Below are positions 7,143 to 46,428 of a stretch of DNA of 49,822 nucleotides, piece by piece. This DNA comes from Rhodothermales bacterium. GTDB taxonomy: Bacteria > Bacteroidota > Rhodothermia > Rhodothermales > DASSAV01. The DNA lies in contig DASSAV010000055.1 in NCBI GenBank assembly GCA_035699265.1, positions 1 to 49,822 on the forward strand, read 5' to 3'. The translations under genes and the position numbers were made by a program. The notes under the pieces are model-generated. The model was not told the DNA's origin. It did not search any database and saw nothing but the letters and a program-made list of their open reading frames with translations. Numbering within the stretch: position 1 is the stretch's first letter; each line of letters starts with the position of its first letter.

Positions 7143-10100
7143 TCAGCCATTGACGTCCACGCGAACTGCCCCACCAGCATTGCCCTGAGCGACACGCCGT
7201 TTAGCTGCAATGGCAGAGGTATATGACTCATTCGCCGGATAGATCAGAGTACAGGGTCGCTCGACGAATATTTTGTATCCCTGGCCCGGATACATCATCC
7301 CGATGCCGTTGATGTTAGAGGCGGGATAGTACACGTCCCCTTCAGAATTGGTAGCCAGGACAAGTGCCGAAGAAATGCTACTCAAGGCTTCTTCAATGTC
7401 CATGTCCCAGCTACGAAGGTAAGGAACCCAATTCCAACCCTTTTGAAGCGACACCGACATCTGCTGAGAGGCAAGAGCTTTACCAGGAATCGACAACGTG
7501 AGTTCACGCTTTGCATACACCATGTATGCTTTTCCTGGGCTCCAGAATTCTAACTGTGCAATCCCCTGCTCAGGGCTGAAGACGCGCCCATCGGCATCTT
7601 TGACGATGACGATGTCGGCGAGCACGGGGCTGAGTATGGCCCGGATGCTGGTGTCTGCCGGCACAGTAGATAGCGAAACGACGTTCCATCCTGGAGTGAG
7701 TGTCAGATGGCTGACGGAAACCCCTTTCGGGAGCACGTCGAAGCTCCGCAATTCGCTCGAAATCGTGTTTCCCTGACGGTCGGTGAACTTGATCGAACAT
7801 CGATAGCTCAATGCCACCTGTGGCGTCCAGGTGCAGCTAAATGGCACCGTTTCATCCTCACACAGCTTGTTGCCGTCGGCCCATCCTTCCATTCTGACGA
7901 TGGATCCGTCATCCGTAGTCGTGCCGGAGAACGTTATCGCCTCACCTAGACTGTATGCGGCGTGGTTTATGGGACTGGCGAACGCTTTGACCCGTATTGT
8001 ACCTCCGGCACCCGAGTCATCCGAATGGTCGACGAGGGAGTTCCAGTCTCCCTTAGGCCACATCATCGCCCCCCAGGCCGCCATGGAGTCCAGCGTGGAC
8101 TTCGTCACCCCCAGTCCGTCCAGGGCGGGTATCACCCGGTAGAGGTAGTCGGCATAGTAAGCCCCGGGCCACCATTTGCCGCCCGTGTAGGGCGTAGGCT
8201 GATATGAAGCACTCGTAACCCCACTCATCGAGCCATCCTCGCGGTAGGTCCAATCACTCGGAGGATGCCGCATGGTCTTTTTGATCCACGTCTGCATTAC
8301 GGGCGTGAGCACACGGCCTTCCAGGGGATAACCCAGTGATTGAAGCGGCCGGTGCTTGGACGGTGCGTCGCCGAAGAACCACGTCGGCGTTATGTGCCGC
8401 CAGTACCATCCTTTCAAGTCACCGTCATCCACTCCGTTCTCGTTGTTGTCCTGTTGTAATAGCTTCACGTAGCTAGCCAGGTAGCGATATGGCTCCTCCT
8501 TCGACCATGGCCCGTGCAGGAACTTGAACTGGTACTTCCAATCAACCGGGCGAAGGGAGATGCCTGCCCGGTTACCTGCATTTAGAATCAACTGAAGCTG
8601 ATACCAACTCGTCGTGAAGTATGTCCACTGAAGGGCGCTTCCGTGTGGCCAGGTACGGCTCAGCATCCCGGTCGCCAGGATATGAGGCGCCACGTCGAAT
8701 ACGGATCGGTACTCCCCAACCCAACTCCGCTTCTCGCCGTATTTGTACATTAAGGGAGCCATATCCTCCAGGCCATAGGAAGTCATGATCTCCCATTGCT
8801 TTACCACAAACCACTGGCCGAGCCCCAGTGTATGATCCGCGATGGCTTTATCTTCGGCAATAGATCTGCCGTAACCCCCAAAGTAGTCGTCCTGCCCCGT
8901 CGTTTGACGGAATTTGAGAAAGCTGCTCCCCCACTCTTCAATGGCTTTCAGCGCGCTCCCGTCATGCTTGGCCTGCTCTGCGCGGCCGTCGATGGTGCGG
9001 AGTAGATTTTTGTAGGAGGAAATAACGTCGCTTGATGTAAAGTCAGTTCTCCATACGTCCTTGGGATGCTCACGGGGGAGCCATTCGTTCCAGTCCGGCA
9101 GTTCAATTGAGATAGGGAGTTGACGCAAGTTGAGTGTACTGTCTACATCGACGGCGCTCTGCGTGATGCCGTTCGGGAACAAGTAGGGGAACATCTCTTC
9201 GTCATTCTCGAGCACCCAGCCCAGACCTGCACCGGCCGCCCAGCAATGCTGCGGCAAGTCATCAAGTGGTCTCCCCTGAATGCAATCCCCCATGGTAGGA
9301 ATTTTGCGGGTTGGACCAGGTTGGTAGGGGGGGTCCCAGGGAGTACCCACGGCAGGAAAGTCCAACGAGCGAATGTATGCCGCTACCTGGTTCGCCTGCG
9401 TAGCAGACAGGCCGTGAAATTCGCTCCGTGCGACGATAGCCTCATTGGAGAAGTTGTAGAACTTGAGATCACGTCCATTGCTGGCATGACAATCTGAACA
9501 CGACGCTCGAATGGCCGGTCCGCCAGGAAACTCTACCAGCGGTGCCGTCTCGTATACCCTTTTTCCCTCACTGATCTGTCCTGCGGAGCCGTAGCCGGCC
9601 GGAGCCGTCCACCGCGAGAAGTCTTCGTAGACCAGGTTATCCGTCACACGCCCTGCCCCGGCGGCGTCGATAGCAGCTTCCGTCAGATCGCCCGCGTAGC
9701 CTCCAGGCAAGAAATTGAAGTTGAGAACACGAAAACCACTGCTAAAACCTTCTGTCCCGTTGAAATAGAAGTCGATCTTGTTCGCACCGTTCCTCACACC
9801 GGCGGCGCGTATGGTAAAACGTACCGTTTCAAATCCCCCGCCGATGCCCTCCAGTTGGACTTCGTTCCTGGCGCAGATAGCTGTCTTGTTATCCACTTTT
9901 ACCCACTCCCCACCATTCACACGCACCCACATCTTGGGACTGCCTGCGGGCGATGACTTGTCCCCATATCTCAAGCCTTCACTCGCCCGGCTCCCGTCTC
10001 CATACTTGTAAGAAGGTTCGTGAACCTGCAGCCAGAGACGGTCGACCTTGCCGTCGCTATTGTCAACGTTCACCGTAATGGACTGGGTCGCAGTTCCTGT

Positions 10101-10310
10101 ACCCGAGAAGACGCGGATCGGAAGTGAAATGTCAGCCACTCCTTGCGCATTTTCTACTCGCGGAACGGCCTCGTACGAACTGTTCGACAACACGACGAGT
10201 GCGGCACGACGATGCAGAAGTTCTTGCGGGGACGGCATGCGCCATGCGTATGCGCCAACGAGCAAGAAAACAGAACTGGCAACGAGGAGGAAGGAACGTG
10301 CGCGTCGCAT
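7143..10310 (-). CDS. Large secreted multidomain protein of unknown function with a c-type heme-binding motif
   Basis: Signal-peptide-like N-terminus MRRARSFLLVASSVFLLVGAYA. CSDCH is encoded at 9486-9500 and is followed by ..FHGLSATQANQVAAYIRSL, which looks like a class-I cytochrome c helix. Two C-terminal repeats of about 80 aa start at L/VxLxxGWN (approximately 7455-7706 and 7236-7454). Confidence 0.7.
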   Translation of the reverse strand: MRRARSFLLVASSVFLLVGAYAWRMPSPQELLHRRAALVVLSNSSYEAVPRVENAQGVADISLPIRVFSGTGTATQSITVNVDNSDGKVDRLWLQVHEPSYKYGDGSRASEGLRYGDKSSPAGSPKMWVRVNGGEWVKVDNKTAICARNEVQLEGIGGGFETVRFTIRAAGVRNGANKIDFYFNGTEGFSSGFRVLNFNFLPGGYAGDLTEAAIDAAGAGRVTDNLVYEDFSRWTAPAGYGSAGQISEGKRVYETAPLVEFPGGPAIRASCSDCHASNGRDLKFYNFSNEAIVARSEFHGLSATQANQVAAYIRSLDFPAVGTPWDPPYQPGPTRKIPTMGDCIQGRPLDDLPQHCWAAGAGLGWVLENDEEMFPYLFPNGITQSAVDVDSTLNLRQLPISIELPDWNEWLPREHPKDVWRTDFTSSDVISSYKNLLRTIDGRAEQAKHDGSALKAIEEWGSSFLKFRQTTGQDDYFGGYGRSIAEDKAIADHTLGLGQWFVVKQWEIMTSYGLEDMAPLMYKYGEKRSWVGEYRSVFDVAPHILATGMLSRTWPHGSALQWTYFTTSWYQLQLILNAGNRAGISLRPVDWKYQFKFLHGPWSKEEPYRYLASYVKLLQQDNNENGVDDGDLKGWYWRHITPTWFFGDAPSKHRPLQSLGYPLEGRVLTPVMQTWIKKTMRHPPSDWTYREDGSMSGVTSASYQPTPYTGGKWWPGAYYADYLYRVIPALDGLGVTKSTLDSMAAWGAMMWPKGDWNSLVDHSDDSGAGGTIRVKAFASPINHAAYSLGEAITFSGTTTDDGSIVRMEGWADGNKLCEDETVPFSCTWTPQVALSYRCSIKFTDRQGNTISSELRSFDVLPKGVSVSHLTLTPGWNVVSLSTVPADTSIRAILSPVLADIVIVKDADGRVFSPEQGIAQLEFWSPGKAYMVYAKRELTLSIPGKALASQQMSVSLQKGWNWVPYLRSWDMDIEEALSSISSALVLATNSEGDVYYPASNINGIGMMYPGQGYKIFVERPCTLIYPANESYTSAIAAKRRVAQGNAGGAVRVDVNG

Positions 10311-10628
10311 GTAAAAACGTTAAGCCTATATCCAATAAAATTACACTTTGGGTACAATTGCAGAATGTGTGCCAGAAGACAGACTGCCCGTGTATCACGT
10401 GCAGTGCAAAGGGCCAGTTCGGGAGTTGGCAGCCATGCTTTCCGCTATAAACAATCGATTCTCGACGGGATCTCAAGGCATCGCGACGACGCGTTCTCGT
10501 ACCCACTTCCAGAACTGCGCATGGTCTACTTGCACACACGCGGGAACGTAGTGCGCATAGCGCCGGGATGGCACGTTCGCACACCTCTCTTCGCAAGCGC
10601 TCAGGGCTCTCCACTCATACGGCGCATG

Positions 10629-15626: not shown

Positions 15627-16349
15627 TTACGTCGTAGACCGTGCGACGCCGAAGGGTTCCAACCGCTGGTAGACGTGTTCGGCCCGGACGAGCAGGCGCT
15701 GGCATCGGGGGCGTTCAAATTCCCGTGCCTTCTCTGCTTTTATCTCCCTGCGCCTGGCCCCGTCGGCAGCATGCTGCTCCGGCTTTCGGAGAGCCCGCAC
15801 GTCGATCTCAGTATGCTCGAACGGAACGAAGTCGGTGTTATAGCGGCGGTTGACCTCAAGTATTACGTCGTCGAGGTGGCTCGTTGTCTGATCGAATGTG
15901 CTGAGCACGAAGGAGCCGGCGTATGGCTCCAGCTTTTCATAGTACCGTACGTAGCTTCGCAACGCTTGCCGTACCGTGACATAAGGCCAGCGGCTGGTCA
16001 GCGACAGGACCGCCTGCCTGGGTTCTCGAATCGTGATGAGCGTGGGGAGGCCCTGTTGTAGCGCTCTTATGACCTGTGCCGGCGCATGGAGATGATGTGC
16101 CAGCATGACAGGCTCCTTCTGACTTTTTTTGAATGCCACGGTGGCAAAGCTATTTCCTGATCCCTGAAATCCATCCAGCACGAACTCAGTATGCGGTCCT
16201 ACCCGGCATTCCGCCACGTCGATGTGCCTGCCTACTTTCTGCTGCGTCCACCAGACGACCATCAAGTGGGGCAGCGCCAGCGCAGGCTCGCGCGCGAGCA
16301 AGGCACGCACCTCGAACTTCAACTGAAGCAACTGCGTCTTCATCAGCAT
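15627..16349 (-). CDS. Sulfotransferase-fold-like protein (weak)
   Basis: DGFQGSGNSFATVAF (P-loop-like) and ITIREPRQAVLSL (R-x-P...S). Its ATG overlaps the upstream stop codon (TAATG at 16347-16351). Confidence 0.4.
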   Translation of the reverse strand: MLMKTQLLQLKFEVRALLAREPALALPHLMVVWWTQQKVGRHIDVAECRVGPHTEFVLDGFQGSGNSFATVAFKKSQKEPVMLAHHLHAPAQVIRALQQGLPTLITIREPRQAVLSLTSRWPYVTVRQALRSYVRYYEKLEPYAGSFVLSTFDQTTSHLDDVILEVNRRYNTDFVPFEHTEIDVRALRKPEQHAADGARRREIKAEKAREFERPRCQRLLVRAEHVYQRLEPFGVARSTT

Positions 16350-43821: not shown

Positions 43822-44967
43822 TCACACGGCGGGACGCCGCTTGGAGAACTGCTTACGCGAGCCCAGGGCAGGGAGACCGGCCAGGTTCATCTCGCGTTCG
43901 ACGAGCTGGTAGAAAACCTCGCGTTCCTGGGCACGAACGACGGCCTGTTCGTGGGCCTCGGACAGAATCATCGGATACCCGCTCCCCTTTTCGCACTCGT
44001 TTAATACGATGGTATGTATCAGGCCGAGCACCTCCTCCCGTTCGGCAATCCACTGCGGGATCTCCACGCGCCCGACCTCGTCGCCTACGTGCAGGTAGAA
44101 GTAGCAGATCCGGTTCGGCCCGTAATCGGACAGCACGTGCGATTCGGCCTCGAAGCAGGCAGAGCGCTCACCAGGACTCAGGGTCGCCTCGAAAAGCTGC
44201 CTGTCCGTAAGGCCCGCCAGCGAATCCCGGGCGTCCACGAGTCCCCCGTCGCACTCGCCCAGGCTAAAGCGCAGCAGGTTGACGACCTCGGTGTTCCGGG
44301 GCATGCTGATGTAGGAGCACAGCGGGATCGCCTCGGCCTCGAACTGCGCCAGCACCTGAACGTATTCGGCGATGAGTTGCTTTTCCAGCCGCTTGTCGCC
44401 CAACCCGCTTACCATCCACCGGATCAGCGTTCCGTCGGATATGGCGACGAGGGGCCGGTCGCCGGCTCGGGCACGAATGGCCGTTTTCAGCAGCTCCGCG
44501 AGCTCAAGTTGATCCCGCACGGCGGAGATGACCTGCGCCGTCGCCGTCTCGAACGCATCCAGGTAGCTTTCCAGGTCGTTCTTCCGGTACTTGAAGAACG
44601 GCACCGATTCCATCAGCGGGCGTTCAACGGTGCCGTAGTGAAAAGCGACCCGGCTGACGTTCAACAGGTAGCAGGTCGGTTCGAAGTGTCGATCGGGGTA
44701 AATCTGGGAGCCGTCGGATGCGACGACGGTGACGGGGGTCGGCCTCGGACCGCAGGCATGCCGCCCCGCGGGCGCCGCGCGCAACCCGGCGACGAGCCAC
44801 GGCAGCTTGCGCCCCGCGATCCGGTCGCGCAGGTTCTCCCAATCGGGGTCGCTATCGGAAAGGGCCTGTAAGGCGTGCTGTAGCCTGTAGCGCGTAGCCT
44901 CCCACTGCTCCTTCTGATAGGAGTCGAATCCGTCGAATTGCTCTCGGAGACTGTTGAGATCGAGCAT
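43822..44967 (-). CDS. NurA-domain nuclease-like protein
   Basis: VTVVASDGSQIYPDRHFEPTCYLLNVSRVAFHYG and PLVAISDGTLIRW (the two DGS/DGT motifs of NurA), plus YISMPRNTEVVNLLR. I set the start at ATG 44967 (MLDLNSLREQF). The upstream part of the track ORF crosses repeats and the hemW antisense strand. Confidence 0.65.
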   Translation of the reverse strand: MLDLNSLREQFDGFDSYQKEQWEATRYRLQHALQALSDSDPDWENLRDRIAGRKLPWLVAGLRAAPAGRHACGPRPTPVTVVASDGSQIYPDRHFEPTCYLLNVSRVAFHYGTVERPLMESVPFFKYRKNDLESYLDAFETATAQVISAVRDQLELAELLKTAIRARAGDRPLVAISDGTLIRWMVSGLGDKRLEKQLIAEYVQVLAQFEAEAIPLCSYISMPRNTEVVNLLRFSLGECDGGLVDARDSLAGLTDRQLFEATLSPGERSACFEAESHVLSDYGPNRICYFYLHVGDEVGRVEIPQWIAEREEVLGLIHTIVLNECEKGSGYPMILSEAHEQAVVRAQEREVFYQLVEREMNLAGLPALGSRKQFSKRRPAV

Positions 44968-45088
44968 GGAAGGCTGCAGGGCGGGCGATGGGGACGGCTG
45001 CCATGTTAATGACGCCGTCGCCGTTCTGCAAGCGAAGCGAGCGGTAAAGGTAAATGTTAGAAAGGTTTGCGTGACTGTTTTACGTGAG

Positions 45089-45118
45089 GAGAAAGCTCCC
45101 CTCCTTTCTAAGGAGGGG
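45089..45118 (-). repeat. Hairpin repeat copy A (CCCCTCCT-loop-AGGAGGGG followed by GAGCTTTCTC), oriented toward the NurA-like gene
   Basis: The plus strand reads gagaaagctcccctcctttctaaggagggg. A perfect 8-bp stem pairs 45098-45105 with 45111-45118. Confidence 0.85.
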
Positions 45119-45197
45119 CCGGGGGTGGTTCCTTGAGAGGTTCGGGCTAACTGAGTCGTTGAGCTTGCCTGCATCGTGTATCCAACCACCCCTATAT

Positions 45198-45262
45198 CCC
45201 CTCCTTGCGAAGGAGGGGAGCTTCTCTTCTCGAACCGATCATCAAGCAAATGGCCATTAGAG
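45198..45262 (+). repeat. Hairpin repeat copy B with a conserved ~45-nt tail, ending 15 nt before the hemW start
   Basis: cccctcct tgcga aggagggg agcttctcttctcgaaccgatcatcaagcaaatggccattagag. It aligns along its full length with copy C. Confidence 0.85.
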
Positions 45263-45276
45263 CATACGAAGACTGA

Positions 45277-46428
45277 ATGGCGGGATTGTACGTCCACATA
45301 CCTTTCTGCTCGCAGCGGTGCGTGTACTGCGACTTCTACTTCGTGACGACGCAGAAGTCGCATACGAGCTTCGTGCAGGCGCTCTGCCTGGAAATCGAGC
45401 ACTACGGGCTCAGCCACGGCAAGAAGGAACCGGTCGAGACGATCTACTTCGGCGGCGGGACCCCCTCCCTGCTCCACGAGGATGAAATCCAGCGGATTCT
45501 CCAAACGATCCACGCCCACTTCGATACGTCAGGGCTCGTCGAGACGACGCTCGAATTGAACCCGGAGGACGTCGACCCGGACTATCTGGCGGGGCTCCGC
45601 GCGCTCGGCATCGACCGGCTCAGCATCGGCATCCAGTCGTTTTTCGCGTCCGACCTCGCGTTCATGAACCGCAGCCACACGGCGGAGCAGGCCGAGGCCA
45701 TCGTCCCGCTCGCACGCGAGGCGGGGTTCGAGAACATCACGGCGGACCTCATTTTCGGACTACCCGAACAGCCGGAGGAATACTGGGCGGCCAATCTGGA
45801 GAAGATGGTAGGGCTGGGCGTACCGCATCTCTCGACGTACAGCCTCACGGTCGAAGAACGCACGCCGCTGTACAAGCAGGTGGAAAGCGGCCTGGTCGTC
45901 CCGCCGGAGGACGACGTCCTGGCCGACCAGTACCGCTTTACGATGGACTACCTCGAAGGCCGCGGCTACGAACACTACGAGGTCTCCAGCTTTGCGAAGC
46001 CCGGCTTCCGGTCGCGGCACAACCAGACGTACTGGCAGCATAAGAACTACCTGGGATTCGGTCCGTCGGCGCACTCGTTCTGGTGGCGGACCGGATCGGC
46101 GGCCGAGCGGTGGTCGAACGTCCGCAACCTGCGGCAGTACGAGGCCCTCTTGAATACCCGGCAGCTTCCGCTGGATGCGCGGGAGACGATCGGCCTGGAC
46201 ACGCTCGCCGACGAGTACGTCATGCTCCGGCTGCGCACGACGGACGGACTCGACCTCGACGTCATGGAGCATCGGTACGGGGTGGATCTCCTGGTGGAGA
46301 GGACGGACGAGTTGGCCTGGATGGAAGGCGAGGGCTACATCCACCCCATCCGCAATGGGGCCGTCCGGCTCACCGACGCGGGCATGCTGCTCTGCGACGC
46401 ACTCACGGGAGAGCTGCTGGCGGATTGA
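45277..46428 (+). CDS. hemW: Radical SAM heme chaperone HemW (HemN-like, oxygen-independent coproporphyrinogen oxidase family)
   Basis: LYVHIPFCSQRCVYCDFYF (CxxxCxxC), IYFGGGTPS, and HemN_C-like C-terminal YVMLRLRTTDGLDL. The 383-aa length fits HemW. Confidence 0.85.
   Translation: MAGLYVHIPFCSQRCVYCDFYFVTTQKSHTSFVQALCLEIEHYGLSHGKKEPVETIYFGGGTPSLLHEDEIQRILQTIHAHFDTSGLVETTLELNPEDVDPDYLAGLRALGIDRLSIGIQSFFASDLAFMNRSHTAEQAEAIVPLAREAGFENITADLIFGLPEQPEEYWAANLEKMVGLGVPHLSTYSLTVEERTPLYKQVESGLVVPPEDDVLADQYRFTMDYLEGRGYEHYEVSSFAKPGFRSRHNQTYWQHKNYLGFGPSAHSFWWRTGSAAERWSNVRNLRQYEALLNTRQLPLDARETIGLDTLADEYVMLRLRTTDGLDLDVMEHRYGVDLLVERTDELAWMEGEGYIHPIRNGAVRLTDAGMLLCDALTGELLAD

Follow-up and report, generated by a model that had tools for sequence, protein, structure and literature searches.

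Gene and domain organization of P0001

The DNA analyzed here, referred to below as the window, is a stretch of 49,822 nucleotides from a Rhodothermales bacterium (positions 1 to 49,822 of contig DASSAV010000055.1, assembly GCA_035699265.1). It contains a polysaccharide locus with glycosyltransferase (GT) genes of families GT2, GT4, GT8, GT47, and GT61, at least seven sulfotransferase genes, Wzy_C and Wzz/BY-kinase genes, a Bac_transf initiator, an ABC exporter, AsnB, and NTP_transf_5. Our subject is one gene of this locus, an intact minus-strand open reading frame (ORF) at 7143-10310 encoding a 1055-residue protein, P0001, which may be a heme-dependent enzyme acting on polysaccharide.

The N-terminus of P0001 (MRRARSFLLVASSVFLLVGAYAW) combines a basic n-region, a hydrophobic helix of 18 residues, and an A-Y-A site, in this order. 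Its sole C..CH motif, CSDCH, occupies residues 271-275 (nucleotides 9486-9500), and the segment FHGLSATQANQVAAYIRSL begins at residue 298. Residues 331-770 are enriched in tryptophan and tyrosine (5.5% W and 5.2% Y vs 3.5% and 4.5% in the whole protein). A Pfam scan returned the Big_7 immunoglobulin (Ig)-like domain alone (777-831, E 7e-12), and an NCBIfam scan of the protein matched nothing. A preliminary description, made from the letters of the window, had listed the ORF, the CSDCH motif, the W/Y-rich center, the Ig segment, and the polysaccharide locus, and all of these are present. The conserved core spans approximately residues 58-768 and combines a beta-sandwich resembling a carbohydrate-binding module (CBM), a heme domain, and a 440-residue W/Y-rich helical domain. 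The features of the gene, all on the minus strand, are given below with the evidence for each; the structural evidence comes from an AlphaFold2 (AF2) model and its predicted local distance difference test (pLDDT) values, and T9SS denotes the type IX secretion system.

10242..10310 (-), residues 1-23: Sec signal peptide or signal anchor (MRRAR, hydrophobic helix, A-Y-A); sequence and AF2 helix 2-23
10140..10241 (-), residues 24-57: disordered linker; pLDDT <50
9606..10139 (-), residues 58-235: conserved CBM-like beta-sandwich; AF2 strands, pLDDT >90
9345..9605 (-), residues 236-322: diverged class I cytochrome c domain of four helices, without the Met-ligand loop; hhalign
9486..9500 (-), residues 271-275: CSDCH, putative heme c attachment motif and proximal His; 224/224 conserved
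9414..9428 (-), R295-S-E-F298-H299: near-invariant R-x-x-F-H closing helix 3; family alignment
9312..9341 (-), residues 324-333: PWDPPYQPGP, invariant connector of heme and helical domains; family alignment
8007..9311 (-), residues 334-768: W/Y-rich alpha-helical domain; AF2, with no Foldseek relative and no Pfam, NCBIfam, or PDB sequence relative
7731..7994 (-), residues 773-860: Ig-like domain (Big_7); PF17957 at E 7e-12 and Foldseek
7470..7721 (-), residues 864-947: GWN repeat 1 (beta domain); internal repeat score and AF2 strands
7233..7469 (-), residues 948-1026: GWN repeat 2 (beta domain); internal repeat score and AF2 strands
7146..7232 (-), residues 1027-1055: basic, low-confidence C-terminal tail with no T9SS sorting domain; pLDDT <50 and no Por_Secre_tail match

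A diverged cytochrome c domain

Residue conservation was measured in a family alignment of 224 sequences from more than 10 phyla. C271, C274, H275, and D281 are each present in 224/224 sequences, and S288, R295, H299, and R314 each in 223/224. Position 298 is Phe in 199 of the 224 and Tyr in 12, and the end of helix 3 reads R295-[SA]-x-F298-H299-G-L. The connector residues P324, W325, P327, Y329, Q330, and P331 are likewise found in every aligned sequence (224/224 each). In 226/226 members that have PWxPxYxP, a CxxCH lies 51-68 residues upstream of it, and 225 of these 226 have exactly one CxxCH. As judged from the aligned sequences, the CxxCH motif is beyond chance occurrence. The preliminary description had named a lack of conservation of this motif in orthologues as an outcome that would speak against its reading; the relatives instead retain it throughout.

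To place the domain, we compared the family region 238-322 by hhalign with 11 Cytochrome_CBB3-type domains from the same genome. The match has a probability of 95.3% (E 2.1e-8) and covers the CxxCH region and the C-terminal helix; residues 236-322 therefore make up a genuine class I cytochrome c domain, though a diverged one. The likeness to a cytochrome C-terminal helix that had been noticed at first reading thus reflects true homology. The same alignment places a 12-residue deletion in the family exactly at the Met-ligand loop (G.MPSF) of the genome's cytochromes, and a search of the family alignment for a Met sixth ligand found no Met column above 59%. Because this loop is deleted and H299 is invariant, H299 is a candidate for either the sixth ligand of a bis-His heme or a distal residue above an open site. 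H415 was also considered as a heme ligand and is an unlikely one, being only 92% conserved and replaced by Tyr in the divergent Rhodothermales subfamily of G002, a complete genome from a different family within the order.

No Pfam cytochrome model exceeds its threshold in P0001 or in the 36 family members scanned. Machinery for covalent heme attachment is encoded in the genome of P0001, which has CcsA/ResB-type assembly proteins, with two PF01578 CcsA/CcmF-type genes, one of them within an 833-aa ORF.

Predicted structure of the conserved core

The full-length AF2 model of P0001, built on a 90-sequence alignment, has a pLDDT of 86.2 and a predicted TM-score (pTM) of 0.74. Its parts are a helix (2-23), a disordered linker (24-57), a beta-sandwich (~61-228), a heme domain of four helices (243-315), a helical domain (~354-750), an Ig domain (774-860), and two beta domains (865-1023). 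A Foldseek search of this model against the PDB gave Ig/FN3-type matches only, those of the Ig domain including the CbhA FN3-like and CelAly B1 domains. For this reason, residues 236-768 were refolded alone, giving a pLDDT of 92.5 and a pTM of 0.92. On the strength of this pTM, the heme and helical domains are predicted to form one rigid body, and this modeled 236-768 unit would be unlike tethered carrier domains.

Searches with the refolded unit returned little. The best Foldseek match in the PDB has an E of 1.2, with none below 1; weaker matches include the c-domain of cd1 nitrite reductase (E 2.8 over 116 columns) and, as the best (alpha/alpha)6 match, Cel9M (E 6.8, probability 0.01). In BFVD the best E is 0.45. 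Run against PDB sequences, the family profile matched only T9SS tails and, at a borderline level, a cytochrome c552 motif; nothing related to the core came up. The models thus point to a 440-residue helical domain with no known fold relative by Foldseek in the libraries used (PDB and BFVD, with AFDB left out). That the central region resembles nothing known, as had been remarked from the letters, is borne out across Pfam, NCBIfam, PDB sequences, and Foldseek.

Both flanks of the heme domain carry conserved residues. In the beta-sandwich, conservation reaches at least 98% at N132, W136, N177, F181, and R194, and P0001 has a clade-specific loop at 98-126. The CBM-like model PF14683 (PL4 domain III) matches this sandwich in 4/36 members (best E 7e-6) and weakly in P0001 itself (E 0.17). 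The conserved residues of the helical domain comprise D406, W407, W410, D418, W500, K504, W530, W569, Y570, Q573, N577, D590, and Y593. Many of its invariant residues are polar or aromatic (D406, D418, K504, Q573, N577, D590, Y570, Y593, and seven Trp), which would befit an active or binding site.

Family size and distribution

A word-indexed search found 168 relatives. At E<1e-30, an exhaustive HMMER pass over 1.84 billion representatives of 50% clusters gave 681 matches; at E<1e-10 it gave 3564, of which some rest only on the Ig and repeat modules. With one genome scanned per species, the family occurs in at least 522 species from more than 10 phyla. The closest relatives are from Rhodothermales (58-65% identity); Salinibacteraceae also have members. 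Other groups include Caldilineaceae, Cytophagales and Flavobacteriales (Hymenobacter, Maribacter, Aquimarina), Trueperaceae, Verrucomicrobiota, Acidobacteriota, Myxococcota (Archangium), Paraburkholderia, Caballeronia, Polaromonas, Alteromonadaceae, and Chthonomonadaceae. Across phyla the core retains 30-40% identity, and many members consist of the core only (650-750 aa).

In public databases the members go by "hypothetical protein", "cytochrome c553", or "T9SS sorting domain protein". Among the 36 members scanned, the core is not covered by a Pfam model in any, and it has no NCBIfam model either.

Tandem pairs of family genes are frequent and usually set a core-only copy beside a long decorated copy. 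Such pairs were seen at L099:6270-12565 (in G002) and in loci L002, L006, L007, L011, L017, L032, L043, L054, L057, and L066. In G002, divergence is much greater in the helical domain (26% identity overall) than in the sandwich-plus-heme half (45%).

Export signals and accessory modules

An N-terminal hydrophobic segment is present in 191 of the 215 N-terminally complete family members. Pfam finds no Por_Secre_tail in P0001, while 9/36 relatives and the G002 orthologues have one. The protein had been called secreted in the preliminary description; export across the inner membrane agrees with this, whereas P0001 has no T9SS tail that would take it further.

Fusions identified by Pfam among the 36 members comprise Por_Secre_tail (9), Big_7 (8), the CBM-like PL4 domain III of the N-terminal sandwich (4), PA14 (3), dockerin (3), RicinB (2), CBM6 (1), and CBM60 (1). 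PKD, Big_2, and I-set domains also occur in some of these members, and malectin was found in precomputed annotations. In its domain composition, this set follows the modular plan that secreted carbohydrate-active enzymes have. The association with CBMs is family-wide; that with exopolysaccharide (EPS) appears lineage-specific.

The two GWN-initiated repeats of P0001 (~864-947 and 948-1026), which the preliminary description had picked out, are genuine, with an alignment score of 89 against 24 +/- 4 for shuffled sequences (maximum 40). The double repeat (window 7233-7721; also L099:6270-9761) is a recurrent Rhodothermales accessory module with no Pfam model. In relatives it lies directly upstream of the T9SS sorting domain, and it is 41% identical to that of the G002 orthologue. 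P0001 shares it as well with a protein on contig C190 of the same genome (35% identity over 181 aa, E 5e-35). This protein, a 637-aa T9SS cargo at C190:4964-6877 (plus strand; L085:760-2673 in our locus set, G000 being the genome), consists of an N-domain with the pattern HFTxC...NATV...GDEIA..., an FN3 domain, two GWN repeats, and a Por_Secre_tail. Because it carries the same double repeat, the unlinked C190 protein suggests that the two proteins may be targeted alike.

Gene neighborhoods

The loci of the closest relatives are syntenic (AsnB, GT4, GT4, sulfotransferase, a 240-aa unknown, and further genes), and the family member P0019 is downstream of Wzy and five GT4 genes. When ORFs were clustered across 83 loci, about 17 loci of Rhodothermales and Salinibacteraceae showed the order Wzy, GT4 ... 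GT4, an optional 240-aa unknown, the family gene, and a T9SS-tailed protein. By exact look-up or direct reading, the family gene follows co-directional Wzy and GT4 genes in 4/5 loci checked. In G002, the corresponding locus has five GT4 genes, two tandem T9SS-tailed family members, GT2, and NTP_transf_5. The proposed link to glycans is supported on two counts, the CBM and lectin fusions of relatives and the recurrence of the gene as the last one of Wzy/GT4 operons among Rhodothermales and Salinibacteraceae.

A frequent downstream neighbor is a T9SS cargo with a conserved N-domain (…A↓Q-HFTxC…NATV…GDEIA…). This N-domain occurs in 72/151 genomes of the order, with three copies in the genome of P0001, where the homologue of the downstream protein is the unlinked one on contig C190. 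A PDB sequence search with the downstream protein found nothing. It is not an obligate partner, as the N-domain is found in 0/8 genomes of one family in which the heme gene is present in 7/8. We also considered it as a protein with an N-terminal His like that of a lytic polysaccharide monooxygenase (LPMO); the conserved A↓Q before HFT makes Gln the most likely mature N-terminus, a prediction that also leans on the usual cleavage sites of Bacteroidota signal peptides. The N-domain, of ~150 aa with conserved Cys (A↓Q-HFTxC...C.G..VWD...), heads many Rhodothermales T9SS cargo proteins of 250-2000 aa, in up to 5 copies per genome and with no Pfam or PDB match; it was seen at L025:13720-14802 and in 14 other loci (e.g. 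L003, L012, L041). A search for AA10 LPMOs (PF03067) gave no match in any of the order's 151 genomes, 29 of which have the family.

Several further features of these loci were observed. In the window, a 318-bp gap (10311-10628) separates the upstream sulfotransferase gene from the start of P0001, and on account of this gap P0001 may have its own promoter there; a sigma-70 consensus scan of the minus strand of the gap found nothing convincing. The 240-aa protein, which has no Pfam match, is encoded at 15627-16349 (minus strand) of the window and recurs in 9 loci. In most of these 9 loci it is immediately upstream of the family gene in a Rhodothermota EPS operon; in the window it stands apart from P0001. 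Inside the G002 EPS operon, an IS605 OrfB/TnpB-type transposase gene (L099:12599-13885, minus strand) has the heme-protein pair on one side and GT2/NTP_transf_5 on the other. Past the polysaccharide locus, the window encodes a 565-aa NurA-domain protein (43822-45519, minus strand).

Proposed function and alternative explanations

The explanation that we favor, at a probability of roughly one half, is that P0001 works outside the cytoplasm as a heme-dependent enzyme on polysaccharide, in this case on the EPS of its own locus. The protein would be exported by the Sec pathway and would then bind one heme covalently at C271 and C274, with H275 as the proximal ligand, through a CcsA/ResB-type system. 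The distal face of the heme would be either closed by H299 (bis-His) or open beside the invariant Arg-x-x-Phe-His. With the invariant PWxPPYQPG as its link to the helical domain, the heme domain would form a rigid core together with this domain and the sandwich. A site lined by Trp, Tyr, and Asp in the helical domain would bind polysaccharide, with modification or cleavage to follow, and the Met-less heme would act as the catalytic center or as an internal electron relay. The substrate here is probably the sulfated exopolysaccharide of the surrounding Wzy-dependent locus, and the reaction may be post-polymerization processing or remodeling. The Ig domain and the two GWN repeats would be accessory modules for spacing or targeting.

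Several observations weigh against this explanation. Literature searches returned no description of the family. Within the order, it is patchy, being found in 29/151 genomes and 15/73 genera, and it is therefore not a core part of EPS synthesis. Outside Rhodothermota, the flanks are mixed: no conserved neighbor emerged among the 102 flanking proteins scanned, and the commonest Pfam assignment, a major facilitator superfamily (MFS)/sugar transporter, accounts for 6/102 immediate neighbors. The EPS link may thus be lineage-specific. Furthermore, having no T9SS tail, P0001 may stay periplasmic or membrane-tethered. The preliminary description had singled out a heme protein as an oddity in a polysaccharide pathway; this needs qualifying, in that the family comprises hundreds of clusters and, outside the phylum, lies mostly away from polysaccharide-synthesis loci.

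As a first alternative, a non-redox hydrolase or lyase would use Asp, Tyr, and Gln of the helical domain for acid/base catalysis, leaving the heme a structural or regulatory part (e.g. a redox or gas switch). The invariant D406, D418, D590, Y570, Y593, Q573, and N577 and the many Trp of this domain would suit such an enzyme, as would the CBM fusions of relatives and the frequency of processing hydrolases or lyases in EPS loci. However, the domain has neither fold nor sequence similarity to glycoside hydrolase (GH) or polysaccharide lyase (PL) families in Pfam or the PDB, and the conservation of CxxCH, R295, and H299 across phyla would be unusually strict for a purely structural cofactor; we regard this alternative as unlikely. 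An electron carrier serving another oxidoreductase such as an LPMO, outside the cell or in the periplasm, would resemble the cytochrome modules of Cbp2D or TERTU_3803. The presence of just one heme c domain and the modular, exported, CBM-carrying make-up of the family fit this picture, and CBM-linked c-type cytochrome domains able to reduce LPMOs provide a precedent (PMC8981238, PMC10916295). Carriage of electrons to a partner is nevertheless doubtful here, given that the 29 carrier genomes, like the rest of the order, have no PF03067 LPMO, that the heme domain appears rigidly fused to the conserved 440-aa domain in the model (pTM 0.92) with no linker tether, and that partner genes are not conserved outside the phylum, nor is the downstream T9SS neighbor obligate within it (gene in 7/8 genomes, neighbor's domain in 0/8).

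Two further alternatives would dispense with catalysis or with the heme itself. The Ig domain and GWN repeats, the recurrence of these repeats in another T9SS cargo of the genome, and the T9SS tails of relatives are what a non-catalytic EPS-binding matrix protein, adhesin, or surface organizer might show. The deeply conserved part of the family is, however, the core, which is free of accessory modules and has the invariant heme motif and polar residues, whereas the adhesin-like modules are variable and dispensable, with many members core-only. The matrix or adhesion role that had been offered as an option thus loses ground, and we consider it quite improbable. Finally, CxxCH might hold a disulfide or another metal site, with a vestigial resemblance to cytochromes; the loss of the Met ligand and the absence of any Pfam cytochrome model above threshold would agree with this. 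The presence of both Cys and the His in 224/224 sequences, the 95% profile homology to bona fide cytochromes c, the export signals, and the maturation system all speak for heme, and a heme-free protein seems very improbable.

A heme enzyme acting on polysaccharide, as favored above, could take a more far-reaching form, which we offer as a speculation with the odds well against it. P0001 and its relatives would then be a new class of extracytoplasmic heme-c enzymes with a new fold, in which the R-x-x-F-H distal site, open or gated by His, uses H2O2 or O2 to oxidize polysaccharides as a heme counterpart of LPMOs, dedicated in Rhodothermales to remodeling the organism's own sulfated exopolysaccharide. 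Extracellular redox chemistry on polysaccharides in bacteria is known almost only from copper LPMOs and a few poorly understood CBM-linked cytochromes. The present family is very widespread; its hosts are soil, marine, and hypersaline bacteria, among them cultured Paraburkholderia, Archangium, Hymenobacter, Maribacter, and Salinivenus. If catalytic, it would add an enzyme class and a fold and would explain the recurrent unassigned gene that closes Rhodothermota EPS operons. Even as a mere carrier or binder, it deserves a family definition, there being no Pfam or NCBIfam model today.

Comparison with known systems

The heme domain shares with class I c-type cytochromes (Cytochrome_CBB3/Cytochrom_C type, e.g. 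c552/c6-like) the order N-helix, CxxCH, helix 3, and C-terminal helix, as well as the C-terminal helix motif A.YI+SL. Two differences set it apart: class I cytochromes stand alone, whereas the P0001 heme domain sits between two large conserved domains, and in place of their G.MPSF loop the family has the invariant R-x-x-F-H.

Heme peroxidases of classes I-III have a distal Arg-x-x-Phe/Trp-His, exemplified by R38/F41/H42 in horseradish peroxidase (HRP) and R48/W51/H52 in cytochrome c peroxidase (CcP). R295-x-x-F298-H299 of P0001 matches this distal triad in spacing and residues, a lead drawn purely from the primary structure. The peroxidases differ in having non-covalent heme b and an unrelated all-helical fold, with no structural or sequence similarity to P0001 (Foldseek). 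Known polysaccharide lyase and glycoside hydrolase folds were set aside for the helical domain, which has no Pfam or PDB sequence match and reaches only E 6.8 with Cel9M.

The planctomycete PSCyt/PSD proteins (DUF1549, DUF1553, DUF1587) and the P0001 family are alike in being large and exported, with an N-terminal heme c motif, a big helical region, and often a lectin domain or CBM. Their phyletic ranges differ. Membership of the PSCyt/PSD group was rejected, as P0001 and the 36 members have no match to PF07635, PF07583, PF07587, PF07626, or related models.

The CBM-linked extracellular cytochrome modules X183 and X132 are known from Cellvibrio japonicus Cbp2D and from Teredinibacter turnerae TERTU_2913 and TERTU_3803 (PMC8981238, PMC10916295). 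X132, too, has been described as without a characterized homologue (PMC8981238, PMC10916295). Cbp2D-type proteins carry DUF1587/PSD-type Pfam domains, which P0001 and the 36 members do not; the missing DUF1587 Pfam match argues against placing P0001 in X132. As for X183, no solved CjX183 or TtX183 entry appears among the Foldseek PDB matches of residues 236-768, and membership of that fold was rejected. X183 modules are small, typical cytochromes on flexible linkers, while P0001 has one heme motif in a predicted rigid fusion to a 440-aa domain. The Cbp2D/TERTU proteins and the P0001 family are nonetheless alike as exported, modular proteins whose single-CxxCH domains are associated with carbohydrate-binding modules, and by this analogy the closest counterparts of P0001 in mode of action would be these Cellvibrio and Teredinibacter proteins.

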